A stretch of 64,000 nucleotides of DNA, taken from positions 9,080-73,079 of the forward strand of contig CALHXW010000060.1 of NCBI GenBank assembly GCA_938040325.1, written 5' to 3'. The stretch is from an uncultured bacterium. Lineage in GTDB: Bacteria > Myxococcota_A > UBA9042 > PHBI01. The position numbers and the translations under genes were made by a program. This document shows positions 23,604-64,000 of the stretch, in pieces (within the stretch, counting starts at the first letter, position 1; every line of letters starts with the position of its first letter). The notes below the pieces were generated by a model. It was given only the letters and a program-made list of their open reading frames with translations, was not told the DNA's origin and ran no database searches.

Positions 23604-23800
23604 ACGCCTACCCATACCCATACCCCTACGCATACGCATACGCATACGCATACGCCTACCCATACGCCTACGCATACGCATACGCCTACGCGTACCCACC
23701 ACCCGTACCCATACCCATACGCCTACGCCAACGCCCACCCCTACGCCTACCCATACCCCTACCCATACGCATACCCGGCCCCCCTACCCCCAACCCCTAC
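23604..23800. repeat. degenerate hexanucleotide microsatellite (CATACG / CCTACG / CATACC)n, about 30 units
   Basis: The run reads …cctacccatacccatacccctacgcatacgcatacgcatacgcatacgcctacccatacgcctacgcatacgc… The spurious + ORF 23547-23903 translating as PTHTHTPTHT…PYPYAYPY is produced by this repeat. It is intergenic, upstream of the minus-strand lipoprotein start at 23521. Confidence 0.8.
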
Positions 23801-23879
23801 CCAGCAACCGCCGGAGCTGAGCCTGTTACCCATGTCCCCGGTTCGAAAACCGCGTAAGCGTAGGGCCCGGCGAAACGCG

Positions 23880-40071: not shown

Positions 40072-40556
40072 CAGCTTGCGATGGGCCTCGTCGCGTCGGT
40101 GCCTTATCTCCGACATGAGCAGTCTTCAACGTGGGCGCCCGGTTCCGTGCACGCCGCGCGACACGTCTTCTCTGCGCCTCGAGCTGGCAGGTCAGAGTCG
40201 ACCACGAGACGCGAATGCCGCTCGCTTCTGGGGCAAAGCACGGAGACCCGACGTTGCTACAGGTCAGCCTCGACGCCGAACGTCCCGTCGCGAACGCAGA
40301 CGCACAGCCACGGTCGCGAACGTCATCAAAAGCAAGTGCTTACGATCGATCTTTTTGCCGCTGGCGTGGGCAAGCAGCACGAGCGACACCCTTTCATGCG
40401 TCTTACAACGGCCATTCGATGCGTGGTCTCGTCGACCCAGCCGTTGACTGCTTCGTCGCCCTATTCCGGATTGCCAAAGACGGCTCCTGAGCCGTTTTGC
40501 GGACTTCGCGTGATGTGCTACCACCGAGGCCGTCTCAACCAGCACGAGGGAATACC

Positions 40557-43500
40557 ATGGCCTGCATCCGTCACGCCTCACGGCGCGCCTATTGGCTCAG
40601 CACCAGCTTGCTTGCTCTTGGACTGATCGCGACCACCGCGAGCTCAGCGCTCGCCGAAGAGCCCATCACGCTGCGCAGCTCATGGACGCTCAACGGCAAC
40701 TTCACGATCATCACCAACGAGAACAACGCCGATGAGGACGTCGACACCGACGTGACGACCGACGACTCCACCTCGGCAACGCTGGTTGTGCCGGCGACGT
40801 CGACCGTCGTCGCCGCTCGCCTGCACTGGGTCTGTCGGGGTGAAGACGCCATGGGCTTCGGTGCCGCCGACCAGGTGAAGCTCGAGACCCCCGACACCGC
40901 AGGCTACGTGCTTGTGACCAGCGAGAGCGACACCGCATGGGGCTCAGGCGCGGTCCTTCAGCGCGCCTTTCAAGCCGATGTGACAGCCCACGTCCAGTCA
41001 GCCGGTGACGTCACCGTTGCTGACCTTCGCTGCAACGGCGTCGATAACCTCGTCAACTACTGGGCGCTCACGGTGGTCTACGAGGACGCTCTTGAGCCAC
41101 TGCGCAACGTCTCGCTCTTCGACGGTTTCTCATTCTTTTCGTCATCGACGCAGACCTTTGAGCTGACCAACGTGGTCACGCCGCCGTCAACCACTGTGCC
41201 CAGCCGCTTTGGCATCGTGTCGACGTCGGGCCACAACAACCAGGTCGGCAGTGAGACAGTCCTGCTCGAGTGCCCATCTTGCGGCGCGAGCGGCATCGAT
41301 CTGGTTGCGGCGGCTGGCGACATGGCCAACCCCACCGGCAACATCTTCAACAACAACATCCGTGCCTTTGGTGGCGTCCCGCCGAGCAACCCAGCCGATC
41401 CGTCGCTACGCGGCAACGCAACGGTTGGCTACGACATGGACCTCTTCGAAGTCGCTGCCAGCACCCTGCCGGCCGACGAGAGTGAGTTCGACGTGTCGTA
41501 CTCGTCGGGCACCGACAACATCATCATGCACATCTTTGCCGTCAGCGTCGGCGTCAGGCGTCCGGTGCTTGAGGTATCCAAGCTCGCCACCCCAAGCCAA
41601 AGCCCGGCACTCACGGGCGACACCGTCAGCTACGAGATGACCGTCGCCAACAGCACCGACACCCCGGCCGACGCGGTCGTGCTGACGGACACGTTGCCGA
41701 CCGGCATGAGCTGGGACGGCGCGAGCATCGAGGTCTGGAACGCAGCCGACAGCGCGTACCGAGCGGTCACCGCGGCGTCCGGCGACGACGACTGCGAGAT
41801 CTCGGGCACGACCCTCACGTGTTGGCTCGGCCAGGGCGCAGACGGCGCTGCTGCCACCGGCGGGATCCTCGAAGCAGCCGACGGAACGCTGCGGGTTCGC
41901 GCAGTGGCCGTGATCGATGCCGTCGGCAACCCCGTCTGCAATCACGCCTCGGCCTCGTATACGTTTGTGGCTGGCGTCGAGACCCTGACCTTCACCGATG
42001 TCTCCGACGACCCGACCACCCCCACCGGCTTTGACTGCAGCGCCACAGCCGTCTGCGGCGACGGCCTCTTGGACGTGGCCGAGAGCTGCGACGACGCCAA
42101 CAGTACCGACGGCGACGGCTGCTCGGCAAGCTGCGAGCTGGACTCGCTCTTCGCATGTGCGACCACCGGGAGCTCACGCTCCACCGACACGGTCTTCGTC
42201 GCCCACACGTCACTCAGCGGCAACACATCGAAAGAGTCCAAGCTCTTCAGCGTCGCCCAGTCCACCAACGTCATCACGCCGCTCGGCGAGTTCAAGCGCG
42301 GCACGACCGACGTGCTTGTCGACGGACTCGCCGTCAACGTCGGGGGCGACCTCTTCGGCTTCGCCTACAACGTGACCACGGGGATGTCGCAGCTTGTGCG
42401 CATCAACCAAGCCAACGCCACGGTTGTCGACATTGGCAGCCCGCTGCCCTTCCTGGTCAACGGCGCAGGCTTCAACGCGCAAAACCAGCTCTGGGTCTCT
42501 GCGGTCCCGTCCGCCCACGGCGACGTCAACGCGATCACCAGCCAACCGCACAGCATTGCCCAGGTCGACGCTGCCACCGGCGCAGTGCTGAGCGGTCCGA
42601 CGCCGCTGGTCCTCAACGGCACGGCGTTCAGCTCGTCCCCCCGCGGACTCGACATCGCCTTCGACGCCGTCGGCGGCCTGATCATCGGCAACAACACGCT
42701 CATCTACCGGGTCGACAACATCGCCATCCCCGAGATGGTGCTGCTCGACACCATCAGCGGCCAGACGTTCTCCGGTATCAGCCTCGGCCCCGACAGCTGC
42801 CAGGGCAACGGCATCGACCACCAGTCGGCCGACAACTGGCTCGGCTGGAGTCTCGCAGGTGGACCGCTGACCAGCGATGGCGCCTTTGCGGCGGAAAACG
42901 CTGGCTCTGGCGACGCCGCTCGCGCGCCGATCTTCTGCGGAGGTGCCTGCCTCGACCACGACGGCGACGGTGTGCTCGACGCCAACGATCTCGACGACGA
43001 CAACGACGGCATCCTCGACACCGACGAGCTCGGCGCCGACCACTCGGGCGACAGCGACAACGACGGCATCGCCGACTACCGTGACGCCAGCATCGTGAGC
43101 TGCCCCGACGGCAACAGCGACGGTGTCTGCGACAGCCTTCCGGTCGATATTGACTTCGACGGCGACGGCGTGCCGAACCACTTCGACAGCGACAGCGACA
43201 ACGACGGCATCCCCGACCTCATCGAAGCGGGCGGCGTGGATGCCGACAGCGACGAGCTGGTCGACGGCTTCGTTGACGTCAACAACGACGGCTACCACGA
43301 CCCGCTTGTGATGACGCCACTCGAGGTGCCCGACACCGACGGGATGGATCTTGCGGACTTCCTCGACCTCGACGCCGACGGCGACGGCGTCAACGACATC
43401 GTCGAGGCCGGGGGCACCGACAGCGACGGCGACGGCGTGGTCGACATGTTCAATGACGTCGACGGCGACGGCTACCACGAGCCACTGCAGACCGCGCCAT

Positions 43501-46500
43501 GGCCTGTCCCCGACAGCGACGGTGACAGCGATCCCGACTTCCGCGACCTCTGTGGTGACGCCCGCGTGACGACCGGCGAGGCTTGCGATGACGGCAACAT
43601 GAGCACCGGCGACGGCTGTGACGATGCCTGCATGGTCGAGGCGGGATGGGTCTGCGGCGGCGGCTCCGACACGATGCCCTCGGTCTGTGACCCGGTCTGC
43701 GTTGACACGGCGGCGGGCACCGGCACCGATGCTGGCTGCAGCGCTGACCTGCCGATCTGCGACACGAGCGGCATGGTCCATGTCTGCGTCGAGCCCACCG
43801 ACGGCAACTGCCTGCCGAACGGCGACTTCGAAAACCTTGAGCCCGTCTGTGCCCAAGCTCTGCAGAGCACAGGCAACTGGGGCGTCGACTACGCCCACAT
43901 CGCGTCCGATGGCCTGGTGCGCAACGGCAACTACTCGCTGCACTTCGTCGGCACCGGCGTTGGCCAAAACCTCAACTCCGACGGCACATGCACCGGCACG
44001 CAGAGTGTCGGCGGTACGGGCTCCGACATCTACGCGGCGATCGACGCCCCACCCGGCCAGTGCCTGAAGATGACCGCCTACTTCAACCGTGCTGCGGGCA
44101 CGACCGACAGCGACTTCAGCTGCGGCCTGCGTGCGACGGACGGCATGGCGCCGCTGACCACCATCAGCACCTTCGGGACCGTCGTTGGCGGCGAGATCAA
44201 CACCATCACCAGCGACGCCGACCCGGACACCTGGGAGACCTGCAACGCCGAGCTCATCGTGCCCGTCGACGGCAGCCTCGTGCTGGCCTACGTCGCCGCA
44301 CTCGAGAACGTCAACGACGACGCAACCAACGAGTTCGGCGGTCACTACGCCGACGACATCCTGGTCGTCAAAGCCCCCATCAGCGAGTGCGACCACTGCA
44401 ACGACGGCGTGCAGGACGCCGACGAGACAGGCGTCGACTGCGGCGGCAGCTGCGACCCGTGTGTTGACGGCGAGGGCTGCGCCATCGACGCCGACTGCGA
44501 GACCGGCCTCTGCACCGATGGCATCTGCGGCCCCGGCCCAGAGGTATGCGACGACGGCATCGACAACGACGGCGACAGCGACGTGGACTGTGCCGACGTC
44601 GAGGACTGCGCGCTCCACATCAGCTGCCAGGGGGTCAACCCGTCGGCCCAGTGCTCGCCGGCTGGCGGCGTCACCGGCGACCTTGTCGGCGTCCAGGTCG
44701 CTCACGGTCTGACATCGGATGCTCCCGACTCGGACATCCTCACGTTCGCCATTCCACCGGGCGCGACCACAGCGCTCGTGTACGGCTTCGGCGGCACACC
44801 AACCGGAGACGGCGTCATCGATGACGAGGACGTCCACACGTCGTTTGCCACCGTCGACCTCGTCAACGGCACCTACGGCGGCTACTTCTCGGCCACCATC
44901 CGGACCGATGCCGCGAGCACCTCGGCCTACACCTGGGTCGATGAGGCACTCGGCACGCCGAGCATCACGGCGGCAAGCGCGCAAGGTGACACCTCCACCT
45001 TCGACGGACTGACCGTCGACCGCCCCGATGCGATGACCCTGACGGTCCGCGAGGTCAGCGCGATGCAGGACGCCGTCTACCTCGTCGAGTTCTACGACGG
45101 CACCAGCGAGAGCCTCAACCTGACGACGACGCGCTCAACCCGCATCGAGATTGGCGACAACTACGAGAGCTTCGCCATCCCGGCTGGCACCGACTGGATC
45201 ACGATCGATGCCTACAACGTCGACGACTGGCGCGGGCCAAGCTCCGCGGGCGTCAGCTTCCACGAGCCCATCGGCGCCGGCCGCTTTGTCATCGACGTGG
45301 CCAACGCCACTGCCACGGGCTTCGCCGGCCAAAACTACGGCTCTGGCGATGCCTATACCTGCAAGTATGGCTTCACGGGCTACGACGTCTCCCAGCCGAC
45401 GACCGCGACGGATGGCGGCGTCCTGGCCTCAGCAGCGATCATCGACGGCGACACGTCGCTGACCGGGACCGCAGGCTGCCCATCACCGAGCCTGTGGCTC
45501 GACGGCAACGTGCTGCACTACCGAAAGGCGCCCGCCGCGTGGGCGATCGACGCACGCCAGAGTGTCATCGTCGACTTCTGGACCAAGACGGGGGCGCCGA
45601 CGGCGGCCAAGGCCATCGGCTCATCGACGGCCTACAACACGAGCACCGGCGTGTTCGAACCAGGGCTCATTTCGCGCCCCATGACCCTGGCGGTCCCTGG
45701 CGGCACCGACTTCTCCCAGGTCCGTTGGTCCATCAACACGCCGATCAACCAGCCCGACAAGGAGCTCAACGAGAACTTCGGCTTCGGCGCAAACCTCGTC
45801 GACTTCAACAAGGGCGAGGTCAGCTGGCGCGGCGTCTACAACAACGGCGCGGTGATGGCGGCGCAGGTCCTCATGCTGGGCACCGTGCCCTTCGGCGTTG
45901 CTGCCGTGCCGGACCCGAGCGGCTGGCCGGACCGGTTCCCGAGCCACACCGTCACCACGTTCGACCCGGTCGCCTCCGAGCTGACGTTCACCTTCAACTC
46001 GCAGCCCTATGAGCAGACGGTCATGCACATGCAGCACTTCGCGCGTGGCCTCGACTTCAGCATCGGGGGCGGCAACGTCGCGACGACACCGACGGCGACC
46101 TGCGAGATGGGCATCACGACCATCGCGCTCAACATCTGCAACACGGGCGCCTCACGCTTCAACGCCCAGCTCCCCGTGACGCTCTACGACGCCGACCCGA
46201 CGGCCGGCGCGGCCAACGTCGTCAGCACGCAGCTCGTCCAGCTCGATGTGGACGGTGGCTTCTGTGCCTCGCCGACGGTGACGCTCAGCGCAGCCGAGTC
46301 AGGGCTCGCCGACAACCTCTACATCGTGGTTCACGACAACGGGAGCGTCGCAGCGACGGGCACGCCCTTTGCGCTCTCCGCGCTGGCGATGCAGCCGACG
46401 GCCACCAACATCAACGAGTGTGACTTCTCCGACAACCTCTACGGCGCGCTCCAGGACCCGTGCGCCCCGACCTGCCGCGACACGGCGGTGGGTGCCGCCG

Positions 46501-49298
46501 CTGACCAAGGCTGCGCGGAGCCCACGAGCGAGTGCGACACGGCCGCGGAGACGTGCGTTGTCTGCGAGGACGACGCGGCGACGGGCGCGGTCGACGGCGG
46601 CTGCAGCGCGGACCTGCCTACGTGCGTGGGCGATGGGTCGTCGGCGACCTGCGTCGAGTGCGAAGTCGACGCTGAGTGTGGCGCCGGCGACGTGTGCGCG
46701 CCCGACAACACCTGCGTGCCCTGCCACGACGACGCGGCAGCTGGCAGTATCGACGACGGCTGCGACATGGCGGCGCCGGCCTGCCTCGGTACCGGCGACA
46801 GCGCGACGTGCGTCGAGTGCGTGGCCGATGCCGACTGCGGTGGTGACGCAGTCTGCGCGCCCGACAACACCTGCGTGCCTTGCCACGACGACGCGGCCGC
46901 TGGCGGCATCGACGATGGCTGCGACGATGCGTTGCCGGCCTGCATCGGCGCAGGAACAAGTGCGACGTGCGTGGCGTGTGCTGCCGACGCCGACTGCGAG
47001 ACCGGCGAGGTCTGTGACCCGAGCAACGCGTGCGTGCCGTGCCATGACAGCGCGATGACCGGTGGCGTCGACAACGGCTGCAGCGATGACACCCCTGCCT
47101 GCGTTGGCACGGCCGCCAACGCCACGTGCGTGGAGTGCGAGGCTGACAGCGAGTGCGACGCCGGCGAGGTCTGTGCCCCTGACAACGTCTGCGTGACCTG
47201 CCACGACGACATGGCGGCCGGCGAGATCGACGACGGCTGCAGCGCTGGGATGCCGGCATGCCTGGTCGACACGAGCGTCATGCCCGCGGCCAGCAGCTGC
47301 GTGGAGTGCATCGCCGACGCGGACTGTGGCGGCGACCTGGTGTGTGATCCGGCAAACAACGCCTGTGTTCCTTGCCATGACAGCAGCAGCGCTGGGGTCG
47401 ACAGTGGCTGTAGTGCGGCGGCTCCAACCTGTGTTGGCAGTGGCGCGTCTGCTACCTGCGAGGCTTGCGACAGCGACGATGACTGCGCGACGGGCGAGGT
47501 CTGCGATCCAAGCAACGCTTGCGTTGGCTGCTTCGACGACGCGGCGCCTGGCGCGGTCGACAGTGGCTGCGCCATGGGTGCGCCCGCCTGCGTCAGCGAT
47601 GGGGGCAGCGCCACCTGCGAGGAGTGCGACGTCGATGCCGCATGCGGCGCCGGCGAGGTCTGCGACGAGAGCAACAGCTGTGTCGCCTGCGAGGACACCG
47701 AGGGCCCAGGCGCGGTCGACAGCGGGTGCAGCGAGGAGACGCCGGCGTGCATCGGCGGTGGCGACGACGCGGTGTGCGTGGAGTGCGCCGCCGACGGCGA
47801 CTGCGAGGAAGGCACGGTCTGTGGGCCCGAGGCGATCTGCGTGGTCTGCCATGACGACGCCGACGCAGGCGCGACCGACCATGGCTGCAGCGACGAGACG
47901 CCAGCGTGCGTCGAGGTCGACGGTGGCGGCGTGACGTGCGTCGAGTGCGAGACGGACGCGGAGTGCCCCGGCACCAATGTCTGTAGCGCAGCGGGCACCT
48001 GTGTGGGCTGCCTGGACACCGACGAAGACACGGTCTGCGACAGCGACGACCCCGACGACGACAACGACGGTGTCGACGATGCTGAGGACGCCGACCCGCT
48101 CGACCCCAACGTCTGCCGCGACGAGGACGCCGACAGCTGCGATGACTGCAGCGTCACCGGCGACGATGGATCGGGTGGCGACCCGGGCAACGACGGCGAG
48201 GACCTCGACGGCGACGGCATCTGTGACGCGTCCGACGACGATGACGACGGCGACGGCGTGGCCAACGACGACGACGACGACCCGAGCGACCCCAACGTCT
48301 GCCGCGACCAGGACGCTGACACCTGCGATGACTGCAGCGTGACGGGCGACGACGGCTCGGGCGGTGACGTGGCCAACGACGGCGATGACCTCGATGGCGA
48401 CGGCATCTGCGACGCGGGCGACGACGACGATGATGGCGACGGTGTGGCCGACGTCGACGACACGGACCCGGCCGACCCCAGCGTGTGCCTCGACACCGAT
48501 GGCGACGGCTGCGACGACTGCAGCGTCAGCGGAGCCGACGGCTCGGGCGGCGACCCAGGCAACGACGGCGCCGACAACGACGGCGACGGTGCCTGCGATG
48601 TGGGCGATCCCGACGACGACAACGACGGCATCCTCGATGACGACGAGCCGAGTGGCGACCTCGACGGCGACGGCCTCGACAACGCCTTCGACATCGACAG
48701 TGATGGCGACGGCATCGTCGACAACGTCGAGGCCCAGCCGGCCGGCTCGTTCACGCCTCCAGCGGGTGCCGATGATGACGGCGACGGCCTCGACGACGCG
48801 TACGACACGGACTCGGGCGGCAGTGCCCTCACGCCGGTCAACAGCGACGACGACGACGACCCGGACTTCTTGGACACCGACGCCGACAACGACATGGTGC
48901 CGGACGCAACCGAGGGCCACGACGCGAACATGGACGGCCAGGCCGACACCACGCCGCTGGGCCAGGACGACAACGACAACGGCCTCGACGACGCGTTCGA
49001 TCCCGGCGCATCCGGCATCGAGGCGCCGACTCAAGACACCGACGCCGACGGCACCCCCGACTGGCGCGACGCCGATGACGACAACGACGACATCCCGACC
49101 GCCGACGAGCTGGAGGACGGCAACGGCAACGGCGTGCTCGACTACCTTGAGGAAGGCGGCACCCAGGTCATCGACGACGACTTCGTCGCCAAGGGTGGCG
49201 CCTGTGCGTCGGCCGCTGGTGGACCGCTGCCGTGGATGCTGGTGGCGCTCCTGACGGCCGGCTGGCTGTGGCGGCGACGGCAGACGACGGCCGGCTGA
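40557..49298 (+). CDS. giant secreted repeat protein (DUF11-like N-terminal region, Myxococcus Cys-rich repeats, TSP3-like Asp repeats, 15 tandem 8-Cys roughly 45-aa repeats, 3 tandem roughly 95-aa Asp-rich repeats, MYXO-CTERM-like tail)
   Basis: The start is the ATG at 40557 (MACIRHASRRAYWLSTSLLALGLIATTASSALA signal). CGDGLLDVAESCDDANSTDGDGCSASC and CGDARVTTGEACDDGNMSTGDGCDDAC match the Myxococcus cysteine-rich repeat pattern. The C-terminus is …GGACASAAGGPLPWMLVALLTAGWLWRRRQ. Confidence 0.85.
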   Translation: MACIRHASRRAYWLSTSLLALGLIATTASSALAEEPITLRSSWTLNGNFTIITNENNADEDVDTDVTTDDSTSATLVVPATSTVVAARLHWVCRGEDAMGFGAADQVKLETPDTAGYVLVTSESDTAWGSGAVLQRAFQADVTAHVQSAGDVTVADLRCNGVDNLVNYWALTVVYEDALEPLRNVSLFDGFSFFSSSTQTFELTNVVTPPSTTVPSRFGIVSTSGHNNQVGSETVLLECPSCGASGIDLVAAAGDMANPTGNIFNNNIRAFGGVPPSNPADPSLRGNATVGYDMDLFEVAASTLPADESEFDVSYSSGTDNIIMHIFAVSVGVRRPVLEVSKLATPSQSPALTGDTVSYEMTVANSTDTPADAVVLTDTLPTGMSWDGASIEVWNAADSAYRAVTAASGDDDCEISGTTLTCWLGQGADGAAATGGILEAADGTLRVRAVAVIDAVGNPVCNHASASYTFVAGVETLTFTDVSDDPTTPTGFDCSATAVCGDGLLDVAESCDDANSTDGDGCSASCELDSLFACATTGSSRSTDTVFVAHTSLSGNTSKESKLFSVAQSTNVITPLGEFKRGTTDVLVDGLAVNVGGDLFGFAYNVTTGMSQLVRINQANATVVDIGSPLPFLVNGAGFNAQNQLWVSAVPSAHGDVNAITSQPHSIAQVDAATGAVLSGPTPLVLNGTAFSSSPRGLDIAFDAVGGLIIGNNTLIYRVDNIAIPEMVLLDTISGQTFSGISLGPDSCQGNGIDHQSADNWLGWSLAGGPLTSDGAFAAENAGSGDAARAPIFCGGACLDHDGDGVLDANDLDDDNDGILDTDELGADHSGDSDNDGIADYRDASIVSCPDGNSDGVCDSLPVDIDFDGDGVPNHFDSDSDNDGIPDLIEAGGVDADSDELVDGFVDVNNDGYHDPLVMTPLEVPDTDGMDLADFLDLDADGDGVNDIVEAGGTDSDGDGVVDMFNDVDGDGYHEPLQTAPWPVPDSDGDSDPDFRDLCGDARVTTGEACDDGNMSTGDGCDDACMVEAGWVCGGGSDTMPSVCDPVCVDTAAGTGTDAGCSADLPICDTSGMVHVCVEPTDGNCLPNGDFENLEPVCAQALQSTGNWGVDYAHIASDGLVRNGNYSLHFVGTGVGQNLNSDGTCTGTQSVGGTGSDIYAAIDAPPGQCLKMTAYFNRAAGTTDSDFSCGLRATDGMAPLTTISTFGTVVGGEINTITSDADPDTWETCNAELIVPVDGSLVLAYVAALENVNDDATNEFGGHYADDILVVKAPISECDHCNDGVQDADETGVDCGGSCDPCVDGEGCAIDADCETGLCTDGICGPGPEVCDDGIDNDGDSDVDCADVEDCALHISCQGVNPSAQCSPAGGVTGDLVGVQVAHGLTSDAPDSDILTFAIPPGATTALVYGFGGTPTGDGVIDDEDVHTSFATVDLVNGTYGGYFSATIRTDAASTSAYTWVDEALGTPSITAASAQGDTSTFDGLTVDRPDAMTLTVREVSAMQDAVYLVEFYDGTSESLNLTTTRSTRIEIGDNYESFAIPAGTDWITIDAYNVDDWRGPSSAGVSFHEPIGAGRFVIDVANATATGFAGQNYGSGDAYTCKYGFTGYDVSQPTTATDGGVLASAAIIDGDTSLTGTAGCPSPSLWLDGNVLHYRKAPAAWAIDARQSVIVDFWTKTGAPTAAKAIGSSTAYNTSTGVFEPGLISRPMTLAVPGGTDFSQVRWSINTPINQPDKELNENFGFGANLVDFNKGEVSWRGVYNNGAVMAAQVLMLGTVPFGVAAVPDPSGWPDRFPSHTVTTFDPVASELTFTFNSQPYEQTVMHMQHFARGLDFSIGGGNVATTPTATCEMGITTIALNICNTGASRFNAQLPVTLYDADPTAGAANVVSTQLVQLDVDGGFCASPTVTLSAAESGLADNLYIVVHDNGSVAATGTPFALSALAMQPTATNINECDFSDNLYGALQDPCAPTCRDTAVGAAADQGCAEPTSECDTAAETCVVCEDDAATGAVDGGCSADLPTCVGDGSSATCVECEVDAECGAGDVCAPDNTCVPCHDDAAAGSIDDGCDMAAPACLGTGDSATCVECVADADCGGDAVCAPDNTCVPCHDDAAAGGIDDGCDDALPACIGAGTSATCVACAADADCETGEVCDPSNACVPCHDSAMTGGVDNGCSDDTPACVGTAANATCVECEADSECDAGEVCAPDNVCVTCHDDMAAGEIDDGCSAGMPACLVDTSVMPAASSCVECIADADCGGDLVCDPANNACVPCHDSSSAGVDSGCSAAAPTCVGSGASATCEACDSDDDCATGEVCDPSNACVGCFDDAAPGAVDSGCAMGAPACVSDGGSATCEECDVDAACGAGEVCDESNSCVACEDTEGPGAVDSGCSEETPACIGGGDDAVCVECAADGDCEEGTVCGPEAICVVCHDDADAGATDHGCSDETPACVEVDGGGVTCVECETDAECPGTNVCSAAGTCVGCLDTDEDTVCDSDDPDDDNDGVDDAEDADPLDPNVCRDEDADSCDDCSVTGDDGSGGDPGNDGEDLDGDGICDASDDDDDGDGVANDDDDDPSDPNVCRDQDADTCDDCSVTGDDGSGGDVANDGDDLDGDGICDAGDDDDDGDGVADVDDTDPADPSVCLDTDGDGCDDCSVSGADGSGGDPGNDGADNDGDGACDVGDPDDDNDGILDDDEPSGDLDGDGLDNAFDIDSDGDGIVDNVEAQPAGSFTPPAGADDDGDGLDDAYDTDSGGSALTPVNSDDDDDPDFLDTDADNDMVPDATEGHDANMDGQADTTPLGQDDNDNGLDDAFDPGASGIEAPTQDTDADGTPDWRDADDDNDDIPTADELEDGNGNGVLDYLEEGGTQVIDDDFVAKGGACASAAGGPLPWMLVALLTAGWLWRRRQTTAG
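46440..48010 (+). repeat. 15 tandem roughly 135-nt repeats encoding C..C.DDAA.G.IDDGCS...P.C.G.G.SATCVEC..D.DC..G.VC.P.N.CV
   Basis: The repeat is read directly from the translated ORF. DNA copies are diverged. Limits are approximate. Confidence 0.7.
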
Positions 49299-49388: not shown

Positions 49389-50576
49389 CTATTGCGTGCG
49401 GAGGGGCGCCACCCATGGCCCGGCAGCGACATCGCGCCATGCCAAGGCCTGGCCGGCACTCCACGTCTGGGTATCATCGCCGCCGTGGACGACGACAACC
49501 TCGGGCTCGGCGTCGCCGATGAGGGCCGCTATGCGAACCAGCGGTTCAAACGCGCTGCCTCGAAACGTCGCACCGGACTTCGCATCGGCGACGATCACGC
49601 GCATGCCGTCTTCGACGACAATATCGGCCTCAAGACCTCGGGGTTGCCGGAAGTGGTACGTGGACTCGGGCTCGCCGCGATGCAGACGCGCTTTGAGGAT
49701 CTCGGATACCACCCAGCTCTCGAAGATCGGCCCACGCAAGGGATGATGTCGAAGCTGGTCTGCCGTGCGAATGCCGAGCAGTGAGCAGGTCAGCCCCGTA
49801 TCGAGCATGTGCAGTTTCGGACGCTTCACTAGACGCTTTCGCACATTGCGGTGCCAAGCCGGGACGACGGTGCACAAATAGGACGTCTCGAGGACCGACA
49901 ACCAAGCCTTCGCAGTTGGCTGGGTAATGCCGGCATCAGAAGCAAGGCTGTTGAGGTTCAGCTCGGTCGCAGTACGGCCTGCGACCAGCCGCATGAAGGT
50001 CGTGAACGTCCGCAGGTTGCCGATGTTGAGGAGCTGCCTGACGTCGCGTTGGATATAGGTGGTCGTATAGTCGAGCAGCCAGCTGGCCGCAGGGAGCTCC
50101 CGGTCATAGATCCGTGGATACGCTCCGGTGACGAGCAGCGACATGAGCTCGTCGGTCGTCGGCGAGCCGAAGCGCGCTAGCTCGTCGAGCGAGGGCGGCA
50201 GTAGAGTGCGAACCGCCGTTCTGCCCGCCAGGGACTGAGAGATTGACGCAGATAGCGCGAAGCTTTGAGAGCCAGTCAGGATGAAGCGCCCCGGTTGGGG
50301 TCGTTCGTCGACGTCCACCTGCAGGTAGGAGAGGAGCTCCGGAACGCGCTGAACTTCGTCGATGATCGCCCCTTCGCGATACTCAGCCAGAAAGCCGCGT
50401 GGGTCATCGCTCGCATAGTCCCGCAAGTCGCCTGCTTCGAGCGACACATAGGGATGGTCAGGAAACACCGCTCGGCAGACCGTGGTCTTGCCCGACTGCC
50501 GAGGCCCCGTCACCGTCACAATGGGATAGTGGGTCGACGCCTGCTGGAGCAGGCTGGACAGGTTTCGGTCAATCAT
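49389..50576 (-). CDS. AAA-family ATPase with DUF4143-type C-terminal domain
   Basis: Walker A (VTGPRQSGKTT) and Walker B-like (IIDEVQRVPEL) motifs are present. The C-terminal region is typical of the AAA_14/DUF4143 family. Start is the ATG at 50576 (MIDRN…). GC content is visibly lower than the neighbours, with an AT-rich upstream region at 50585-50650. Confidence 0.8.
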   Translation of the reverse strand: MIDRNLSSLLQQASTHYPIVTVTGPRQSGKTTVCRAVFPDHPYVSLEAGDLRDYASDDPRGFLAEYREGAIIDEVQRVPELLSYLQVDVDERPQPGRFILTGSQSFALSASISQSLAGRTAVRTLLPPSLDELARFGSPTTDELMSLLVTGAYPRIYDRELPAASWLLDYTTTYIQRDVRQLLNIGNLRTFTTFMRLVAGRTATELNLNSLASDAGITQPTAKAWLSVLETSYLCTVVPAWHRNVRKRLVKRPKLHMLDTGLTCSLLGIRTADQLRHHPLRGPIFESWVVSEILKARLHRGEPESTYHFRQPRGLEADIVVEDGMRVIVADAKSGATFRGSAFEPLVRIAALIGDAEPEVVVVHGGDDTQTWSAGQALAWRDVAAGPWVAPLRTQ

Positions 50577-50737
50577 GTCGTGATGATACGAGAGCCTGCA
50601 CAAATTGAAAATCCAATTTTGAATTTGCACATTCGGGCCGATCTTCAATGGCATTGAAAATCTGCCCGCATCGGTGTGATGCGATCGTCATGCCACCTGT
50701 CCAAGCAAGCTCGTTGGAGCTCGGACCGCAGAGCTTC

Positions 50738-53499: not shown

Positions 53500-53790
53500 C
53501 TAGAAGTGACGTGGTGGGTCCATCTGGTCGTGTACCACGCGGACAATGCCGACGATCTCATCTGTGAAGACGTAGAAGGCAACGTGCCGCCCAATGTGGA
53601 TCGAGAAGTAGCCGGGTTTGATTTTCTTGCGGCTCCTGCCACGGTCGGGCTGGGGCCCGAGCAGCTGGATGGCTTGGTGAAGCTGCCGAAGGTACCGGTC
53701 CGCTTGCTCCTCGCCCCATGTTTCGAACGTGTAAAGCCAGATACCTTCCAAATCAGCAGCAGCCCGTGGCCTTATGACGATCTTACGCAC
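53500..53790 (-). CDS. parE: ParE/RelE-family toxin
   Basis: The 97-aa core MRKIVIRPRAAADLEGIWLYTFETWGEEQADRYLRQLHQAIQLLGPQPDRGR…VFTDEIVGIVRVVHDQMD fits ParE. The probable GTG start at 53790 overlaps the parD stop by 8 nt; the ORF track extends it to 54075. Confidence 0.6.
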   Translation of the reverse strand: MRKIVIRPRAAADLEGIWLYTFETWGEEQADRYLRQLHQAIQLLGPQPDRGRSRKKIKPGYFSIHIGRHVAFYVFTDEIVGIVRVVHDQMDPPRHF

Positions 53791-54034
53791 CCAGTGCAGC
53801 CTTCTGACGGGCTGATGAGATGATCTCCTCGATGTCGAACGGACGGTACGGGCCGCTGCCTTCGCCTTCCTCCAGCGCTGCCCGGAGCGCATCCACGTGT
53901 TGTTGCTGCTGCTCCATTGAACGCAGTGCATCACGGACGACTTCGCTCCTGTTGCTGTAGCGGCCTGACTCGACCTGCGCCGCGATGAAGCTCTCGAAGT
54001 GGTCGCCGAGGCTGATGCTGGTGTTCTTACCCAT
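53783..54034 (-). CDS. parD: ParD-family antitoxin (RHH/CopG)
   Basis: MGKNTSISLGDHFESFIAAQVESGRYSNRSEVVRDALRSMEQ closely matches the ParD consensus (MAKNTSITLGEHFDGFI…SGRY.SASEVIR.ALRLLE). Confidence 0.7.
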   Translation of the reverse strand: MGKNTSISLGDHFESFIAAQVESGRYSNRSEVVRDALRSMEQQQQHVDALRAALEEGEGSGPYRPFDIEEIISSARQKAALGA

Positions 54035-54171
54035 GCTGTTCTCCCGGGTGTTGCTCTCTCCGAACAGGTTACCAATATCTGGTAACCCTCACAATAGACG
54101 ATAACCTACAGGGACTTCGAGGCCCCGCGCCGGGCCGGCGCTAGCGCAGCACCTACGCTGGCGCTGCGCAG

Positions 54172-54401
54172 AGTGGCTAAGCACTTGTGAACGCTGGGAA
54201 ATTAGGCAGGTGTCTTGGATTAGGCTGCGGGCGCTGCGTGTAGTGGCTAAGCGTTTGTGAATGCTGGGAAATTAGGTGGGTGTCTTGGATTGGGCTCAGG
54301 AAATTTGGTGGGTGTCTTGGATTGGGCTCCGGCGCGGAGTGGCTAAGCGTTTGTGAATGCTGGGAAATTAGGTGGGTGTCTTGGATTGGGCTTCTTCACA
54401 A
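54172..54401. repeat. three tandem-ish copies (plus one half copy) of a roughly 55-70-bp repeat: …GCGCTGCG..AGTGGCTAAGCGTTTGTGAATGCTGGGAAATTAGGTGGGTGTCTTGGATTGGGCT
   Basis: Copies are at about 54172-54226, 54242-54296, a partial copy at 54298-54328, and 54347-54401, with 2-3 mismatches among them. GC content is low locally. A fourth copy in inverted orientation lies at the window end (see 63945-63975). Confidence 0.75.
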
Positions 54402-54895
54402 GAACTACCTTTTCGACCTGGGCTATCTAGTTCGAGAGCTTGCGCTTCAGGAGCGCGACGGGGCGTCCGACCTCAAGCGATAGCTTTCCTGGGCGGACAG
54501 CTGGTGGCGTATCACGCCGTGTTTCGCTTATGCAGATTCAAGCCGACGCGTTCGGCATCCCGCTGTGTGACTTACGACTTGATGGGCTCGATCCTGTGGT
54601 TGAGCGGGTGTGAGAAAGGACACAGTGACAACCCCTGAAGACGTTGAGCTAAGCTCGCCCGATATTGATGAGCTGGCTCCCCCGACCCGAGGCGTTGTTC
54701 CGGCAAGAGTTAGGCCTTCTCCACCGCTGAAGACGAATCTTGTTCGAAGCCGAAACTCATGGTTCCTATCGGACCATGAGCGAGCGAGTAGCCCCGAGAT
54801 CGATACCATCGCGAGAGTAGCCCGCCCTTGGCTTGCGCGCTGTCACGACCGGCTTTGACTGGCTCCGCCCTTCCCTCCCTTCAGATGAGCCCGCT

Positions 54896-56527
54896 ATGAC
54901 CCACCCCACCGAACCGAAGTCGCGCGGCTTCCTCAACTGGATCGAGCGGGTCGGAAACCGCCTGCCCGACCCGGTCTTCCTCTTTCTCTACCTCATCTTG
55001 GGGTTGGTTGGCGTCTCCGTGCTCTGCGCCGCTCTTGGCGTGTCCGCAGAACACCCGACGAAGCTCGCCGCCGACGGCACGCCGCTTGTGCTTGACGCTC
55101 AGAGCCTGCTCTCAGCCGAGAACATCCGCAGGCTCTGGACGGAGATGCCGCAGACGTTCACCCACTTCCACCCGCTCGGCTACGTCTTGGTCGTGATGCT
55201 CGGCGCCGGTGTCGCCGAACGCAGCGGGCTCTTCGCCACCGCCATGCGGGCCGCTGTCCGCAAGGCCCCTGTCGCGCTGCTGACACCGGCCGTGGCGCTC
55301 GTCGCCATGCTCTCCAACCACGCCGCCGACGCCGCCTACGTGGTGTTGATTCCCCTCGCGGGCGTGCTCTACCACAGCGCCGGTCGCCACCCGCTGGCCG
55401 GCATCGCCGCCGCCTTTGCCGGCGTGTCCGGAGGCTTCTCGGCCAACTTTGCCCCCGGCCAGCTCGACGCACTGCTCTTCGGAATCACCGAGGCCGCCGC
55501 CGAGACGGTCAACCCCGCCTACGACGCCAACATCGCAGGCAACTGGTACTTCATCGCCGCGCTGTCCGTCATCTTCTTGCCCATCATCTGGTACGTCACC
55601 GACCGCATCATCGAGCCACGCTTGGGGCCCTGGAGCAGCGACGACGCGCCAGCTCTCGGGGCCACCGATGGCGACCGCCGCGACGCGCAGCCCGGCGATA
55701 GCGAGATGGGGGACCTGACGGCGGCGCAACGAAAGGGACTGGTTGCTGCCGGGATCGCGGCTCTTGTCGTCGCAGGCCTCTGGGTCCTGATGACCATCGG
55801 CCCCGGCACGCCACTCATCGACGAGTCTCTCTGCACCGACGAAAACCTGGCCGCCGGCAAGTGCTCGGCTCAGGCTCGACTCACGCCCTTTTACCGATCG
55901 CTGGTCGCCGCGTTCCTGATTCTCTTCGCCGCCTGCGGTTGGGCCTACGGAAAGGCTTCAGGCTCGATCAAGAACCACCGCGACCTCGTCGAGATGATGA
56001 CCGGCGGCATGAAAGAGATGGGCTACTACCTCGTCCTAGCGTTCGTGGCCGCCCACTTCGTCGCGATGTTCAACTGGTCGAACCTCGGCCTCATCAGCGC
56101 CGTACACGGCGCCGACGCCATCCAGCAGTCCGGCCTCCCGCTGCCGCTTCTCATCGGCCTGATCGTTGTGTTCTCGGCGACCATCAACATCTTCGTCGGC
56201 TCAGCCAGTGCCAAGTGGGCGCTGCTGGCCCCCGTGATGGTGCCGATGCTCATGCTCCTGGGCATCAGCCCCGAGGGCGCGACCGCCGCGTACCGCGTAG
56301 GCGACAGCGCCACCAACATCATCACGCCACTGATGGTCTACTTCCCGCTCATCCTCATCTTCTGCCAGCGCTGGAAGCCAGACTTCGGTCTCGGCAGCCT
56401 GACCGCGATGATGGTGCCCTACTCCATCTTCCTCATGGTCGGCGGGCTCACCCTGACCATCTTGTGGGTCTACATGGGGCTTGAGCTAGGCCCAGGCGCG
56501 CCCATCAGCTACACGCCGAGCCCGTAG
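54896..56527 (+). CDS. AbgT-family transporter (p-aminobenzoyl-glutamate/MtrF-type)
   Basis: Start is the ATG at 54896 (MTHPTEPKSRGFLNWIERVGNRLPDPVFLF, the characteristic AbgT N-terminus). There are 12 or more hydrophobic segments. Confidence 0.8.
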   Translation: MTHPTEPKSRGFLNWIERVGNRLPDPVFLFLYLILGLVGVSVLCAALGVSAEHPTKLAADGTPLVLDAQSLLSAENIRRLWTEMPQTFTHFHPLGYVLVVMLGAGVAERSGLFATAMRAAVRKAPVALLTPAVALVAMLSNHAADAAYVVLIPLAGVLYHSAGRHPLAGIAAAFAGVSGGFSANFAPGQLDALLFGITEAAAETVNPAYDANIAGNWYFIAALSVIFLPIIWYVTDRIIEPRLGPWSSDDAPALGATDGDRRDAQPGDSEMGDLTAAQRKGLVAAGIAALVVAGLWVLMTIGPGTPLIDESLCTDENLAAGKCSAQARLTPFYRSLVAAFLILFAACGWAYGKASGSIKNHRDLVEMMTGGMKEMGYYLVLAFVAAHFVAMFNWSNLGLISAVHGADAIQQSGLPLPLLIGLIVVFSATINIFVGSASAKWALLAPVMVPMLMLLGISPEGATAAYRVGDSATNIITPLMVYFPLILIFCQRWKPDFGLGSLTAMMVPYSIFLMVGGLTLTILWVYMGLELGPGAPISYTPSP

Positions 56528-61357: not shown

Positions 61358-62143
61358 CTAAGGGGCGAGTGCGTCGACCTCGCGCTGGAGCGCGTCCAAC
61401 CGCCGCTCCAGGTTGCGCAGTGCGTTCCAGCGGGCGTCCGCTTCGCGGTCGAGCAGGTCGAGGTCTGCGGTGTAGTGCGTGACGGTGACGCGATAGCCAT
61501 CGGCGTCGCCCGCCACTCGAGCTTGGGCGTACGGGTACGCATCGACGTGGTGCATCGTGAAGCCGCAGAGCTGGCCGAGCTCGACGGCGTGCTTGGCCAG
61601 CGTTGGCTCAAGCCAATCCAGCCGACTGGCGTTGTCGTCGGCATAGCCCGCGAGTGACGCGCCCTCGTGAGTGGTCACAACCGTGCAGTTGGCGTTTGGG
61701 CTGGCGAAGAGCTCATCGATGACTGGGGCGTCGTGGCGAGCACGGAGGTAGGTCCGTGCTCCGTCGAACTCAGACAACGCCTCGGCGCCGGTCACAGTCC
61801 AACTCTGGGCGACCGAGCGGAGCTGGCCATCAAACATCGTCACGCAGAAACGCGGACTCGTCCCGTCCGGTTGGCAATAGATCGACGACAGCCCGGCCAA
61901 CCCGATCTTGAGCTCAAGGTCTGGATAGATGTCCTTGAGCTCGTCAAGGTCTGCGCGCCAGTCAACCGCTTCAAGAAGGTCGAAACTGCGCGTTGTGGTC
62001 TTTTGGTCTAACGACTCTTCGTTCGCGTCTGCCGTCTGCTCAGCGGTCATTGCCTCGACCATCTGCGGCCCCGGCTCAGACGGGTGGCACCCGGTGGTCA
62101 CTACGAGCGCTGCGATCAAGGCCATGGTGTGTCGTTTTCTCAT
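61358..62143 (-). CDS. hypothetical lipoprotein
   Basis: MRKRHTMALIAALVVTTGC-HP carries a lipobox. The ORF track extends the ORF to 62188. Confidence 0.5.
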   Translation of the reverse strand: MRKRHTMALIAALVVTTGCHPSEPGPQMVEAMTAEQTADANEESLDQKTTTRSFDLLEAVDWRADLDELKDIYPDLELKIGLAGLSSIYCQPDGTSPRFCVTMFDGQLRSVAQSWTVTGAEALSEFDGARTYLRARHDAPVIDELFASPNANCTVVTTHEGASLAGYADDNASRLDWLEPTLAKHAVELGQLCGFTMHHVDAYPYAQARVAGDADGYRVTVTHYTADLDLLDREADARWNALRNLERRLDALQREVDALAP

Positions 62144-62466
62144 CGTATGCTCCTGCATGTCAGGGTCCGTTCGAGAGATACGACGCATGAGAAGTGAGTT
62201 TGACGCCTTTCACAGATCTTACATCCGCGACAAATGGACCCCGGCAGACGAGAGCAACCCACGACAAAGCTGCCGCCCTCGCTCGCGAAACTCGCCCGCC
62301 GCCATGACGCCAGATGACACGTGCGCTCGTGACGAGCGATACAACGACGACCGAGACCGATGCCGATGCGCCACGGTCGACTGGCGTCAACCGCGGTCTT
62401 GGGATACTTGAGACAGACGGGCTCACGAGGCTCCGCATGTGCCGGTCAAGACAGACGGGAAGATCA

Positions 62467-62832
62467 ATGGTTTCGAAGAACACGCGCATCGCTCTCTCAG
62501 TCGGGATGCTGGCGATCCTCTCCACGACGGGTTGCGCGGCAAAAGAGGCGTGGCAGAAAATCGAATACACGGCGCTGAACCCGGCCCCAAGGCAAATGGT
62601 CGAACGGACCATCGCTGAGGTTCAGATGTTCGCAACGAAGCCACCTTCGTACCCCTACATCGAGGTAGGTCGGCTAACGTTGAAGCGTGGCTCTGAGTAC
62701 TGGTTGCGCAAAGCGGCTGCGGAACGTGGCTGCGAGGGTCTCATTACCTATGTTGCCGATGGCGCAATATGCATCATGTTCCAGCAAGAGCCGCTGCCGA
62801 CACCGGTTGCGCCCCCTATGACGCGCATCTAA
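62467..62832 (+). CDS. small hypothetical lipoprotein
   Basis: MVSKNTRIALSVGMLAILSTTGC-AA carries a lipobox. It is the downstream part of ORF 62314-62832. Confidence 0.5.
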   Translation: MVSKNTRIALSVGMLAILSTTGCAAKEAWQKIEYTALNPAPRQMVERTIAEVQMFATKPPSYPYIEVGRLTLKRGSEYWLRKAAAERGCEGLITYVADGAICIMFQQEPLPTPVAPPMTRI

Positions 62833-62968
62833 CCGGAACACTGCGAGACGGCGATTGACCTAAATTCAACTCAATCGGTACTGTGATGGCGAATGTCCTA
62901 AACCGCGAGGACGCAGCCGCGGCGTCAGTTCGCGCAAGCGAGCACAACCGTGTCATGAGGGCGAAAGA

Positions 62969-63895
62969 GTGAGCCGAACAGCACCCAGCCAGCTCCTTGC
63001 GCTTGCAGCTGGCAGCGTCCTAGCTGCGGTGATTGTGTTCGGCTCGCGAACGGCTGTCCTTGCCTGCTCGATATCAGGAACGTCGTTCGGCCCATCCCTG
63101 CCCCCGAGCGACGGGCTCACTCTTGGCTCTCGCCCCGTCTTCCTCGCGTTGGGTGCGTCGTCACCAAGGTTGATGGTGGTCGGTTCCTATGACCCGATTG
63201 CGCTAAGTCCGATCGATGGGTTCAACGATGTCGAGGCGGCGCACTCCGGTGGCAGTCTGACAGGATGGACACCCTCCGGGCAGCTTGCTCCGGGTGAGTA
63301 CCACCTACTCGGAGCGTTCGGGGACGTTGGCCCTGGGCGAACGTTCTTTGTGGACCCTGAGGTCATCGAGCCACCTCCACAACTTGAGGACGCCAACTTC
63401 CGTGTCGTCATCGACGACCCAGATGAAGACGAGAGCCTGAGCTGTTCGGGGTTCGGGAGTACCTGTGACGACATCGACTTCAGCTCGCTGACAATCGATT
63501 TCAACGCACCTGACAGCGTGGCTGGCGCGCTTATACGACTTGAGTTTCCGGGGAAAGCTCGAAGCACGACGAGGTTCGGTGGCGGCATCTTGGACTCAGC
63601 CACCGCGACAAGTAGCGGGACGTTTCAAAGAACCCATCTGTTCCGCAACGACAGCAGCCTGCCGGCGTCGTTCAAGACGTCGAGAGTGTGCGTGACTCTA
63701 TCCCCCGTCAGCAACAGCGGTGCGATCGGCACCCCAGTCGACTTAGGGTGTGCGAGGGCCGATGACGACGATCCGCGGGTGGTCGACACACGGGCTTGTG
63801 GTGCGTCGCCAAAGAGCTCAGACATCGTCTGGGTCGTGCTATCGGTTGCCATCCTTTGGGTTCGCCGGAGCACGGCGTACTCCCGCGCCTGTTAG
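62969..63895 (+). CDS. secreted hypothetical protein with MYXO-CTERM-like C-terminus
   Basis: A signal-like N-terminus is present. The C-terminus is …ACGASPKSSDIVWVVLSVAILWVRRS (Cys/Gly, hydrophobic stretch, basic residues). Confidence 0.6.
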   Translation: MSRTAPSQLLALAAGSVLAAVIVFGSRTAVLACSISGTSFGPSLPPSDGLTLGSRPVFLALGASSPRLMVVGSYDPIALSPIDGFNDVEAAHSGGSLTGWTPSGQLAPGEYHLLGAFGDVGPGRTFFVDPEVIEPPPQLEDANFRVVIDDPDEDESLSCSGFGSTCDDIDFSSLTIDFNAPDSVAGALIRLEFPGKARSTTRFGGGILDSATATSSGTFQRTHLFRNDSSLPASFKTSRVCVTLSPVSNSGAIGTPVDLGCARADDDDPRVVDTRACGASPKSSDIVWVVLSVAILWVRRSTAYSRAC

Positions 63896-63944
63896 CGCAG
63901 CAGTAGGTGCCAGACCCGAGCCTAGTCCGAAAACAAGCGCTCTT

Positions 63945-63975
63945 TCCCGCCCAATCCAAGACACCCACCTAATTT
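63945..63975. repeat. inverted copy of the 54172-54401 repeat core (GCCCAATCCAAGACACCCACCTAATTTCC = reverse complement of GGAAATTAGGTGGGTGTCTTGGATTGGGC)
   Basis: The 29-nt match is exact. The window ends before the rest of the element can be seen. Confidence 0.6.
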
Positions 63976-64000
63976 CCTAGCACGCGTGCAACCGCTCGGG

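Follow-up and report, generated by a model that had tools for sequence, protein, structure and literature searches.

RAYT-like tyrosine transposases (RAYT stands for a tyrosine transposase associated with REPs, and REP for a repetitive extragenic palindrome) are among the most common "transposase" annotations in bacteria, and REPs are thought to be mobilized by RAYTs. To our knowledge, a DNA partner is known for the REP-associated subclasses only, and we know of no function or DNA partner for the Y1/HUH proteins that resemble subclass 2.3. The analysis presented here concerns a family of short repeats within 64,000 nucleotides of DNA from an uncultured bacterium (GTDB lineage Bacteria; Myxococcota_A; UBA9042; PHBI01; GenBank assembly GCA_938040325.1, contig CALHXW010000060.1, positions 9,080 to 73,079), the whole of which is referred to as the window. 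The repeats form a tandem array between the parD and abgT genes (locus A) and recur in inverted orientation close to the end of the window (locus B). Comparison with related loci in other genomes indicates that they are probably the end-type (flank) repeats of an element with a RAYT-like tyrosine (Y1/HUH) transposase, of the kind known as TIRtrons.

The repeats of the TIRtrons are the closest known kind. TIRtrons are RAYT-like genes ("TIRYT") with flanking inverted repeats that are unrelated to REPs, and the copies of these terminal inverted repeats (TIRs) make up moderately abundant families that occur as singles, dimers and clusters, the clusters often being tandem reiterations of a unit that includes DNA from beside the repeat (Di Nocera et al. 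2013, PMC3733652). For the TnpA-Y1 proteins, a classification of the superfamily reported no associated repeats, and specifically no REP-like secondary structures, next to genes of the long subclasses 2.1 and 2.3 (Quentin et al. 2018, PMC6006769); the protein family described below shows resemblance to subclass 2.3.

The 29-nt core of the repeats, GGAAATTAGGTGGGTGTCTTGGATTGGGC, starts on the + strand of the window at 54197, 54267, 54299 and 54363 (3, 0, 1 and 0 mismatches, respectively) and is found on the − strand at 63949-63977 (0 mismatches). A set of 100 dinucleotide shuffles contained 0 matches to the core, confirming that the repeat family reported in the first-pass annotation is real. 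The exact inverted core reported there was also recovered, at a position about 2-4 nt away from the 63945-63975 originally given. The following copies were identified:

54172-54226, + strand: unit 1, 55 nt, with core 54197-54225 (3 mismatches to the consensus); the most diverged copy
54242-54296, + strand: unit 2, 55 nt, with core 54267-54295 (exact to the consensus)
54299-54327, + strand: lone core (1 mismatch), forming a core-core doublet with unit 2 like the doublet of locus L060 (below)
54338-54392, + strand: unit 3, 55 nt, with core 54363-54391 (exact)
54395-54426, + strand: possible degenerate core after unit 3 (...CCTTTTCGACCTGGGCT), within a Tandem Repeats Finder (TRF) row at 54242-54424 (period 96, 79% matches); weak and perhaps not real
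63915-63947, − strand: possible degenerate second core, at a distance of one 32-nt period from the inverted copy and with about 60% identity
63949-63982, − strand: inverted core (locus B), 34 nt, with 97% identity to units 2 and 3 and no mismatch within the 29-nt core

Locus A thus contains four direct cores (54197-54391), three of them inside a 55-nt unit that consists of AGTGGCTAAGCGTTTGTGAATGCTGG followed by the core as its 3' half (unit starts 54172, 54242 and 54338). The fourth core, at 54299, lacks the 5' half of the unit and follows the core of unit 2 by 32 nt, giving core start-to-start distances of 70, 32 and 64 nt. Together with the preceding spacer the units form a 70-nt family with 80-86% identity, in agreement with the earlier observation that the segments between the copies are themselves related, and the overall architecture is one of tandem 70- and 96-nt units with one or two cores apiece. 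Copies 1 and 2 differ at six positions, all of them transitions. The match of the inverted copy extends to 34 nt, and on the + strand the copy reads GCCCAATCCAAGACACCCACCTAATTTCC, the left-flank type defined below. A weak second core of about 60% identity lies one 32-nt period beyond copy 3 and likewise beyond the inverted copy; the evidence that these two are genuine is suggestive only. Searches of the 64 kb with profiles of the window copies and of the wider family detected no further copies.

The link to a transposase family came from a single genome. The looser pattern GGNNGGTGTCTTGGATTNGG was scanned over 185,579 species genomes and gave 63 matches, about the number expected by chance, which were then ranked by their similarity at positions outside the specified bases. 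One match stood out (L060), located on a 368-kb contig of a metagenome-assembled genome (MAG) of the Planctomycetota and consisting of AGGCGGGTGTTTTGGATTGGGCTCC, 6 nt, and AGGTGGGTGTCTTGGATTGGGCTCC, two copies of the same 25 nt that form a doublet with 31-nt spacing (31-32 nt in the window). The doublet, AGG[C/T]GGGTGT[T/C]TTGGATTGGGCTCC, is 86% identical over 57 nt to positions 54274-54330 of the window. With approximately eight additional identities at unspecified positions and an adjacent second copy, the similarity is far beyond what chance would be expected to yield among 63 candidates. The doublet also bears on the possibility that the window repeats are an incidental local duplication, neither functional nor mobile. 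Such a duplication would account for the presence of only two loci in 64 kb and for copy differences that are all transitions, as under neutral drift, but it is highly improbable given a near-identical doublet in a different phylum and related motifs at the flanks of homologous genes (below). A unit absent from relatives and explained by incidental duplication, which had been put forward as the case that would dispose of the repeat family, is contradicted by this doublet.

The L060 doublet is located 240 nt past the stop codon of a 68-aa open reading frame (ORF), which is what remains of the C-terminus of a longer protein. Used as a query, this remnant returned short relatives only, one of which (L192) adjoins a fragment bearing the sequence GRFWEGRFK...YVDLNPIRA, a signature of Y1/HUH transposases. 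With the joined L192 fragments as query at least 8000 proteins were found, mostly 330-395 aa in length, and many of them carry the Joint Genome Institute (JGI) name "REP element-mobilizing transposase RayT". An alignment of 36 members displays near-invariant N71, H72 and H74 (the HUH motif) and invariant W140, G161-R-F, Y185, D187-L-N-P and D318-W-T-G-R, with a distance of 111 aa between H74 and Y185. Matches of the family in profile libraries are weak but in agreement with one another: the NCBIfam model REP_Tyr_transpos matches it with E-values of 1e-10 to 1e-12 (40-47 bits against a cut-off of 80), the match to Pfam Y1_Tnp is sub-threshold, and a profile search against the PDB touches IS200/ISDra2 transposases at the HUH motif. 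Several diverged copies of the family are found per genome, and plasmid-borne homologues are found only in the Alteromonadales, the Vibrionales and Aeromonas.

The DNA around the family genes was compared with the repeats in the window. The motif has the consensus RAAAWWRG-TGGRTGTC-TTKGAT when written with TGGRTGTC on the top strand, and the individual loci read as follows:

Window: motif GGAAATTAGG TGGGTGTC TTGGATTGGGC
L060: motif CGAAGAAGG TGGGTGTC TTGGATTGGGC
L197: motif CAGAAAAG TGGGTGTC TTGGATTCC
L192: motif GCAAAAAG TGGGTGTC TTTGATCATC, five copies, 26-30 nt apart
L198: motif GCAAAATG TGGATGTC TTGTTCTGC
L193: motif GGGAGAG TGGATGTC TGGCTTCCC
L194: motifs CAAGTTGG TGGGTGTC GTCGATACC and TAAGTTGA TGGGTGTC CGGAAAGC

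Overall, variants of the motif flank the gene in six out of seven distinct loci, and their orientation is always as predicted. The two loci that are intact on both sides (L193 and L194) carry GACAYCCA upstream and TGGRTGTC downstream of the gene on the coding strand, so that the motif is inverted between the flanks. Its distance is 115-180 nt to the start codon on the upstream side and 245-450 nt from the stop codon on the downstream side, and the downstream motifs lie in tandemly duplicated units of 81 or 104 nt, which in L194 contain 31-32-nt doublets. The intact relatives have one to five copies per side of a 25-30-nt non-palindromic motif around a Y1 gene of 330-395 aa, the copies on the same side being direct and either 26-32 bp apart or contained in tandemly reiterated units of 70-150 nt. 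A full-length gene whose C-terminus is the closest to the L060 remnant (L197) is followed 245 nt after its stop codon by GTGGGTGTCTTGGATT, which shares 16 identical nucleotides with the window core and lies at the expected downstream position. L192 and L198 carry the motif in its upstream form. Each lineage has its own variant on both flanks: TGGATGTCTGGC in L193, TGGGTGTC(C/G)GGAAAGC in L194, and TGGGTGTCTTGGATT in L060 and L197.

At L192, a tandem array of five GGGAGATGATCAAAGACACCCACTTTTTGC units (5266-5520) is found in place of the N-terminal (HUH) half of the Y1 gene. The array contains two copies of an 80-nt super-unit, and the gene is frameshifted with an internal stop codon. At L060, three tandem CTTGACCCCATGATCC (6846-6905) abut the truncated 5' edge of the Y1 remnant and resemble the ATGATC...GAC.CCC part of the L192 unit. 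An extended version of L193 (L199) contains at 7051-7130 an 80-nt copy that is 98.8% identical to the right-flank unit and lies 2.9 kb away from the gene, and therefore orphan copies exist. This orphan directly follows the stop codon of a gene for a PIN-domain toxin, which spans 7136-7600 and has a 111-aa partner. A gammaproteobacterial "transposase" homologue with 38% identity to the family, located on the Catenovulum adriaticum plasmid pCadTS8_2 (L201), carries a 153-nt unit three times at 100% identity directly upstream of the gene (1029-1489) and a 40-nt unit twice downstream, with an inverted repeat between the flanks. Tandem reiteration is thus a trait of the wider clade.

At the level of sequence, the core is observed to be homologous between genomes, to flank Y1 genes in inverted orientation, to have lineage-specific variants and to occur as orphan copies, and the assignment of the window repeats as ends of a TIRtron-like element is built on these observations. 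For either gene strand the resulting rule is that, on the + strand, GACAYCCA marks the left flank and TGGRTGTC the right. Locus A has TGGGTGTC there and is accordingly a right-flank-type array with its "inside" to the left and the transposase gene absent, and its tandem unit structure closely resembles the right flanks of L193 and L194. Locus B reads GACACCCA, a left-flank-type array with its "inside" extending rightward past the end of the window, which is reached 23 nt beyond the locus. If the distances are as in L193, L194 and L198, a Y1 gene at locus B is predicted to start approximately 80-150 nt past position 64000 on the + strand, with copies of GGTGGGTGTCTTGGATT predicted beyond its stop codon.

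Since both arrays have their inside on the side opposite to the 9.5 kb between them, this segment lies outside both putative elements and is not bracketed by them. The first-pass annotation had considered that the two loci might bracket the AbgT/Mo-oxidoreductase segment as the termini of a single defunct composite element. The exact 29-nt inverted repeat at a distance of 9.6 kb and the lower GC content at both boundaries are what such an element would be expected to show, but the orientation is opposite to that of the intact elements, the left end has four copies with a unit structure while the right end is cut by the window, and the 9.5 kb contain no transposase and have the normal genome GC content of 0.65-0.72. 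Two termini of one composite element are accordingly quite unlikely, and the bracketing was not borne out.

The main rival to end-type repeats is that the motif belongs to the host, outside the element, and serves Y1 elements as a preferred site of insertion, in which case the arrays in the window would be unoccupied targets. Some IS elements (insertion sequences) are known to insert into REPs. Copies without a gene, in the window and in L199, fit a target, as does the L192 array that stands in place of the N-terminal half of the gene as if joined to it by insertion or deletion. However, each gene lineage has its own variant on both flanks, inverted and at similar distances, which fits the co-evolution of a protein and its site, and a host-specific target that is common to the Planctomycetota and a Myxococcota-like genome would be a misfit. 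Because the motif variants track the gene lineage on both flanks, a preferred target is disfavored and considered unlikely. The earlier suggestion of a REP-type dispersed element or of mobile-element termini comes close to the reading supported here, as the same core flanks RAYT-like genes elsewhere.

Several observations weigh against the assignment of the window repeats to a TIRtron-like element. A tblastn search of the 64-kb window with six family proteins identified no family gene or remnant (nothing better than E 0.3), and the proposed association with the gene draws on the sequences of other genomes, mostly from another phylum. The comparison includes every family locus for which DNA was obtainable, which amounts to seven distinct loci for a family of thousands of members. 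One remnant locus, recovered from four samples at an identical place (L188-L191), lacks the motif in the 540 nt downstream, and nothing in any relative corresponds to the 5' half of the 55-nt unit. The copy count covers the 64-kb window alone. Finally, the AlphaFold model of the Y1 protein is poor (predicted local distance difference test, pLDDT, 58) and its best Foldseek matches, although they are IS200/IS605 transposases, are not significant (E about 0.4).

The resemblance to TIRtrons concerns both the DNA and the protein. L193 and L194 have inverted flank repeats around a Y1 gene, and the family motifs NHxH, WEGRFKS and Y-x-x-x-NP resemble those of the listed TIRYTs. An adjacent RAYT-like gene is present at L060, L192, L193, L194, L197 and L198, whereas none is visible in the window. 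The two window loci are mutually inverted, but in an outward-facing order and with no gene visible. As to dispersal, copies were seen at two loci in the window (a group of four to five copies and a single or dimer) and as the orphan in L199. There are also clear differences. Many, but not all, published TIRs contain GGGGWSAS, whereas the core reads GTGGGTGTC, and TGGGTGTC differs from GGGGWSAS by two mismatches. Several direct iterations of a 25-30-nt motif are present per flank here instead of one long TIR, and the family has a different conserved C-terminal domain and lacks the DnaA_C/HTH-type C-terminus of the listed TIRYTs. The occurrence of one motif lineage in both the Planctomycetota and a Myxococcota-like genome departs from the published picture. 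With these differences, the repeats are best filed as TIR-type repeats of RAYT-like Y1 elements, present in the window as gene-less arrays.

Other described systems share individual features with the repeats. REPs and REPINs are likewise short intergenic repeats that are tied to a domesticated or IS200-like HUH tyrosine transposase and flank its gene in inverted orientation, with dispersed orphan copies that cluster into arrays resembling bacterial interspersed mosaic elements (BIMEs) (Nunvar 2010; Bertels and Rainey 2011, PMC3116915). The window repeats differ from them in being direct tandem repeats instead of inverted pairs, with no palindrome or hairpin and no GTAG or CGTC tag, and the family protein remains below the REP_Tyr_transpos cut-off given above. 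Judged by a set of features, the protein family appears to fit TnpA-Y1 subclass 2.3, which is prevalent in the Alteromonadales and Chromatiales, in several respects: the length of 330-395 aa, the HUH-Tyr distance of 111 aa (median 110 in the subclass), a conserved insertion and a long C-terminal tail, plasmid homologues in the Alteromonadales and Vibrionales, and several diverged copies per genome. It differs from the subclass in that the flanks carry direct and inverted sequence repeats instead of hairpins. Direct binding motifs of about 20-30 bp at each end, inverted between the ends and spaced by whole helical turns, are also found in the TnsB sites of Tn7, the L1-L3/R1-R3 sites of Mu, IS21 and the iterons of HUH Rep origins. 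These involve DDE transposases or Rep initiators, of which there are none here, and in the absence of sequence similarity they serve as a working analogy only.

The motif is a putative binding site of the conserved C-terminal domain of the family (LDWTGRQ...ILERLG...FGRWFK). At a spacing of about three helical turns several protomers would sit on the same face of the DNA, so that the HUH/Tyr active site comes to lie at the ends of the element, where the HUH/Tyr domain would cut at or near the arrays. The arrays would change in length by unequal exchange or slippage of whole units, and solo arrays would arise by gene loss or by mobilization of end units in trans. Binding of the motif by the C-terminal domain is a tentative proposal, to which slightly less than an even chance is assigned. 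A broader proposal is more doubtful: that the subclass-2.3-like Y1/HUH proteins represent a distinct mobile system whose ends are arrays of iterated non-palindromic motifs recognized by the C-terminal domain, and whose solo arrays are mobile DNA of a non-autonomous kind, comparable to REPs but lacking hairpins, which has passed between the Planctomycetota and the Myxococcota. For annotation the feature itself is ordinary, and its value is as a candidate DNA partner for a large transposase-like clade that lacks one. If the arrays are the cognate sites of the 2.3-like clade, they provide a testable substrate for binding, cleavage and mobilization assays, and REP-like colonization of genomes would be possible without the need for hairpins.

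A number of other identities were considered for the repeats and rejected. A CRISPR array, which had also been dismissed previously, is ruled out by spacings of 70, 32 and 64 nt, by "spacers" that are themselves repeated and by the lack of cas domains in the neighboring ORFs. The suggestion of a miniature inverted-repeat transposable element (MITE) fails because the unit has no internal terminal inverted repeats; the only inverted repeat with the units is the distant copy at 63949, and the lone local palindrome (54124-54161) lies upstream of unit 1. A REP or REPIN proper was set aside on the absence of a hairpin and of a conserved GTAG or CGTC tag, the copies at locus A being all direct. Plasmid iterons or a partition centromere would be expected beside rep or parA/parB genes, none of which is adjacent, and no similarity to plasmid records was found. 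A sigma-54 or extracytoplasmic function (ECF) sigma factor promoter in the 5' half of the unit (TGGC-N7-TTGT), assessed by eye, has a different register at locus B and lacks the −12 GC. The differences between copies (three A/G and three C/T) are not adenine-specific, as they would be in the template and variable repeats of a diversity-generating retroelement (DGR), and the core contains no T-arm/acceptor-like sequence by eye and has no Rfam match that would indicate an att duplication of a tRNA or tmRNA gene.

Database searches with the array gave little. No match was found by blastn against plasmids and phages, the strict 25-nt pattern had no match in the genome or metagenome collections, and viral contigs contained two chance matches to the motif only and no relative of the RayT-like protein. 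Among the metagenome matches listed for the looser pattern GGNNGGTGTNTTGGATTNGGC (L068-L187), most represent the MAGVLDSAR motif of malate dehydrogenase genes, which is a methodological trap for searches with this core. L182 looked similar but lies within a coding region and was discarded as a relative.

The repeats were further considered as a tandem small RNA or as the repeat RNA of a type III antitoxin-like system. Tandem direct repeats beside a toxin-antitoxin locus and a strongly asymmetric, G+T-rich strand (GC skew 0.49) are compatible with an RNA. However, Rfam returned nothing relevant for the repeats at either gathering or permissive thresholds; the fold of each copy and of the whole array, on both strands and as RNA and DNA, equals that of shuffled sequences (z −1.2 to +1.4); there is no terminator within the array or after the units; and the periods (70, 32 and 64 nt) show no regularity. 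The array is not followed by a ToxN-like or any other gene, no codon-position GC signal is seen in the ORFs at 54372-54858, and for a ToxI-like RNA in particular no convincing gene is present from 54393 to abgT (defence and toxin libraries were not used to screen these ORFs). An RNA is the least probable of the explanations considered, and the small structured RNA family suggested in the first-pass annotation was not supported.

The features next to locus A are:

53500-54034, − strand: parE/parD toxin-antitoxin pair, with parD at 53783-54034; context, outside the repeat family
54124-54170, no strand: palindromic, GC-rich segment (GCGCCGG-G-CCGGCGC; GCGCAGC...GCTGCGC) that separates the array from the parD promoter region; context
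About 54896-56527, + strand: AbgT transporter, the neighbor of locus A

The neighbors had been correctly described. Beyond the array the + strand encodes AbgT followed by a 4Fe-4S protein, NrfD and a molybdopterin oxidoreductase, and to the left of locus A parDE is followed by a short-chain dehydrogenase/reductase (SDR) gene and further ordinary genes. The divergent gap between parD and abgT (54035-54895) measures 860 nt and has a GC content of 0.53-0.60 (over 54000-54900) compared with 0.65-0.72 in the neighboring genes, as had also been noted earlier. It carries no codon-position GC signal: over 54100-54830 no consistent pattern was detected, and neither the 70-nt nor the 32-nt period is divisible by three. 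A hairpin at 54504-54520 is the sole terminator-like site, and no sigma-70-like promoter was found. The gap most likely holds the debris of a transposon end and not a gene or a small RNA. A stretch of 440 nt separates the array from abgT.

The position of the array in this gap raises the question of whether abgT or parDE is controlled from it, with the cores acting as operators of a transcription factor of the host or as a promoter region. The divergent intergenic setting, a 32-nt spacing that places cores on one face of the helix and a distance of about 160-175 nt between the parD ATG and the nearest core are in line with such control. A perfect 8-bp inverted repeat, GGTTACCA-atatc-TGGTAACC, is however located at 54067-54087, 33-53 nt upstream of the parD start codon. 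Palindromes are the usual form of antitoxin operators, and this one is likely the operator of ParD (ribbon-helix-helix), distinct from the repeat family; the array is therefore not required to account for the control of parDE. The same core is also located downstream of an unrelated convergent gene at locus B and beside transposase-like genes in another phylum, and together with the missing sigma-70-like promoter this makes a regulatory role very unlikely.

The toxin-antitoxin pair had been taken as a sign of a mobile context, which is suggestive only, although the L199 orphan is also located beside a PIN toxin gene. The position beside toxin-antitoxin genes in both cases could be a coincidence or reflect a common preference for variable toxin-antitoxin islands. 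AbgT (543 aa) has a single identical protein in the database; the next best match is 77% identical, and the named top matches belong to MAGs of the Polyangiales, the Myxococcota and the "Deltaproteobacteria", so that the host probably belongs to the Myxococcota and lacks close sequenced relatives. The abgT locus of this nearest relative (L001) shows no synteny and no motif.

Several features elsewhere in the window were recorded. A gene for a DUF4143/AAA_14 ATPase (49389-50654) is located 3 kb upstream of parDE and has no evident tie to the repeats; genes of this type are frequent in islands with mobile or defence functions. The GC content of 61800-64000 is 0.57-0.63, below that of the rest of the window, and this region encodes a secreted-looking protein of 308 aa (62969-63895) with a tail made up of Cys-Gly-Ala-Ser, a hydrophobic stretch and Arg-Arg. 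The tail resembles a MYXO-CTERM sorting tail; neither NCBIfam nor Pfam gave a match. A degenerate hexanucleotide repeat, (TACCCA)n, with approximately 28-32 copies and 76% matches is located at 23604-23802 within overlapping long ORFs and is probably a low-complexity linker of a large secreted protein. Finally, two giant ORFs (4785-15821, 3678 aa, and 40497-49298, 2933 aa) contain Asp/Cys-rich tandem repeats with TRF periods of 69-186 nt and CGACGGC-type codons, and similar repeats are found at 21143-22050 and 28493-29018.

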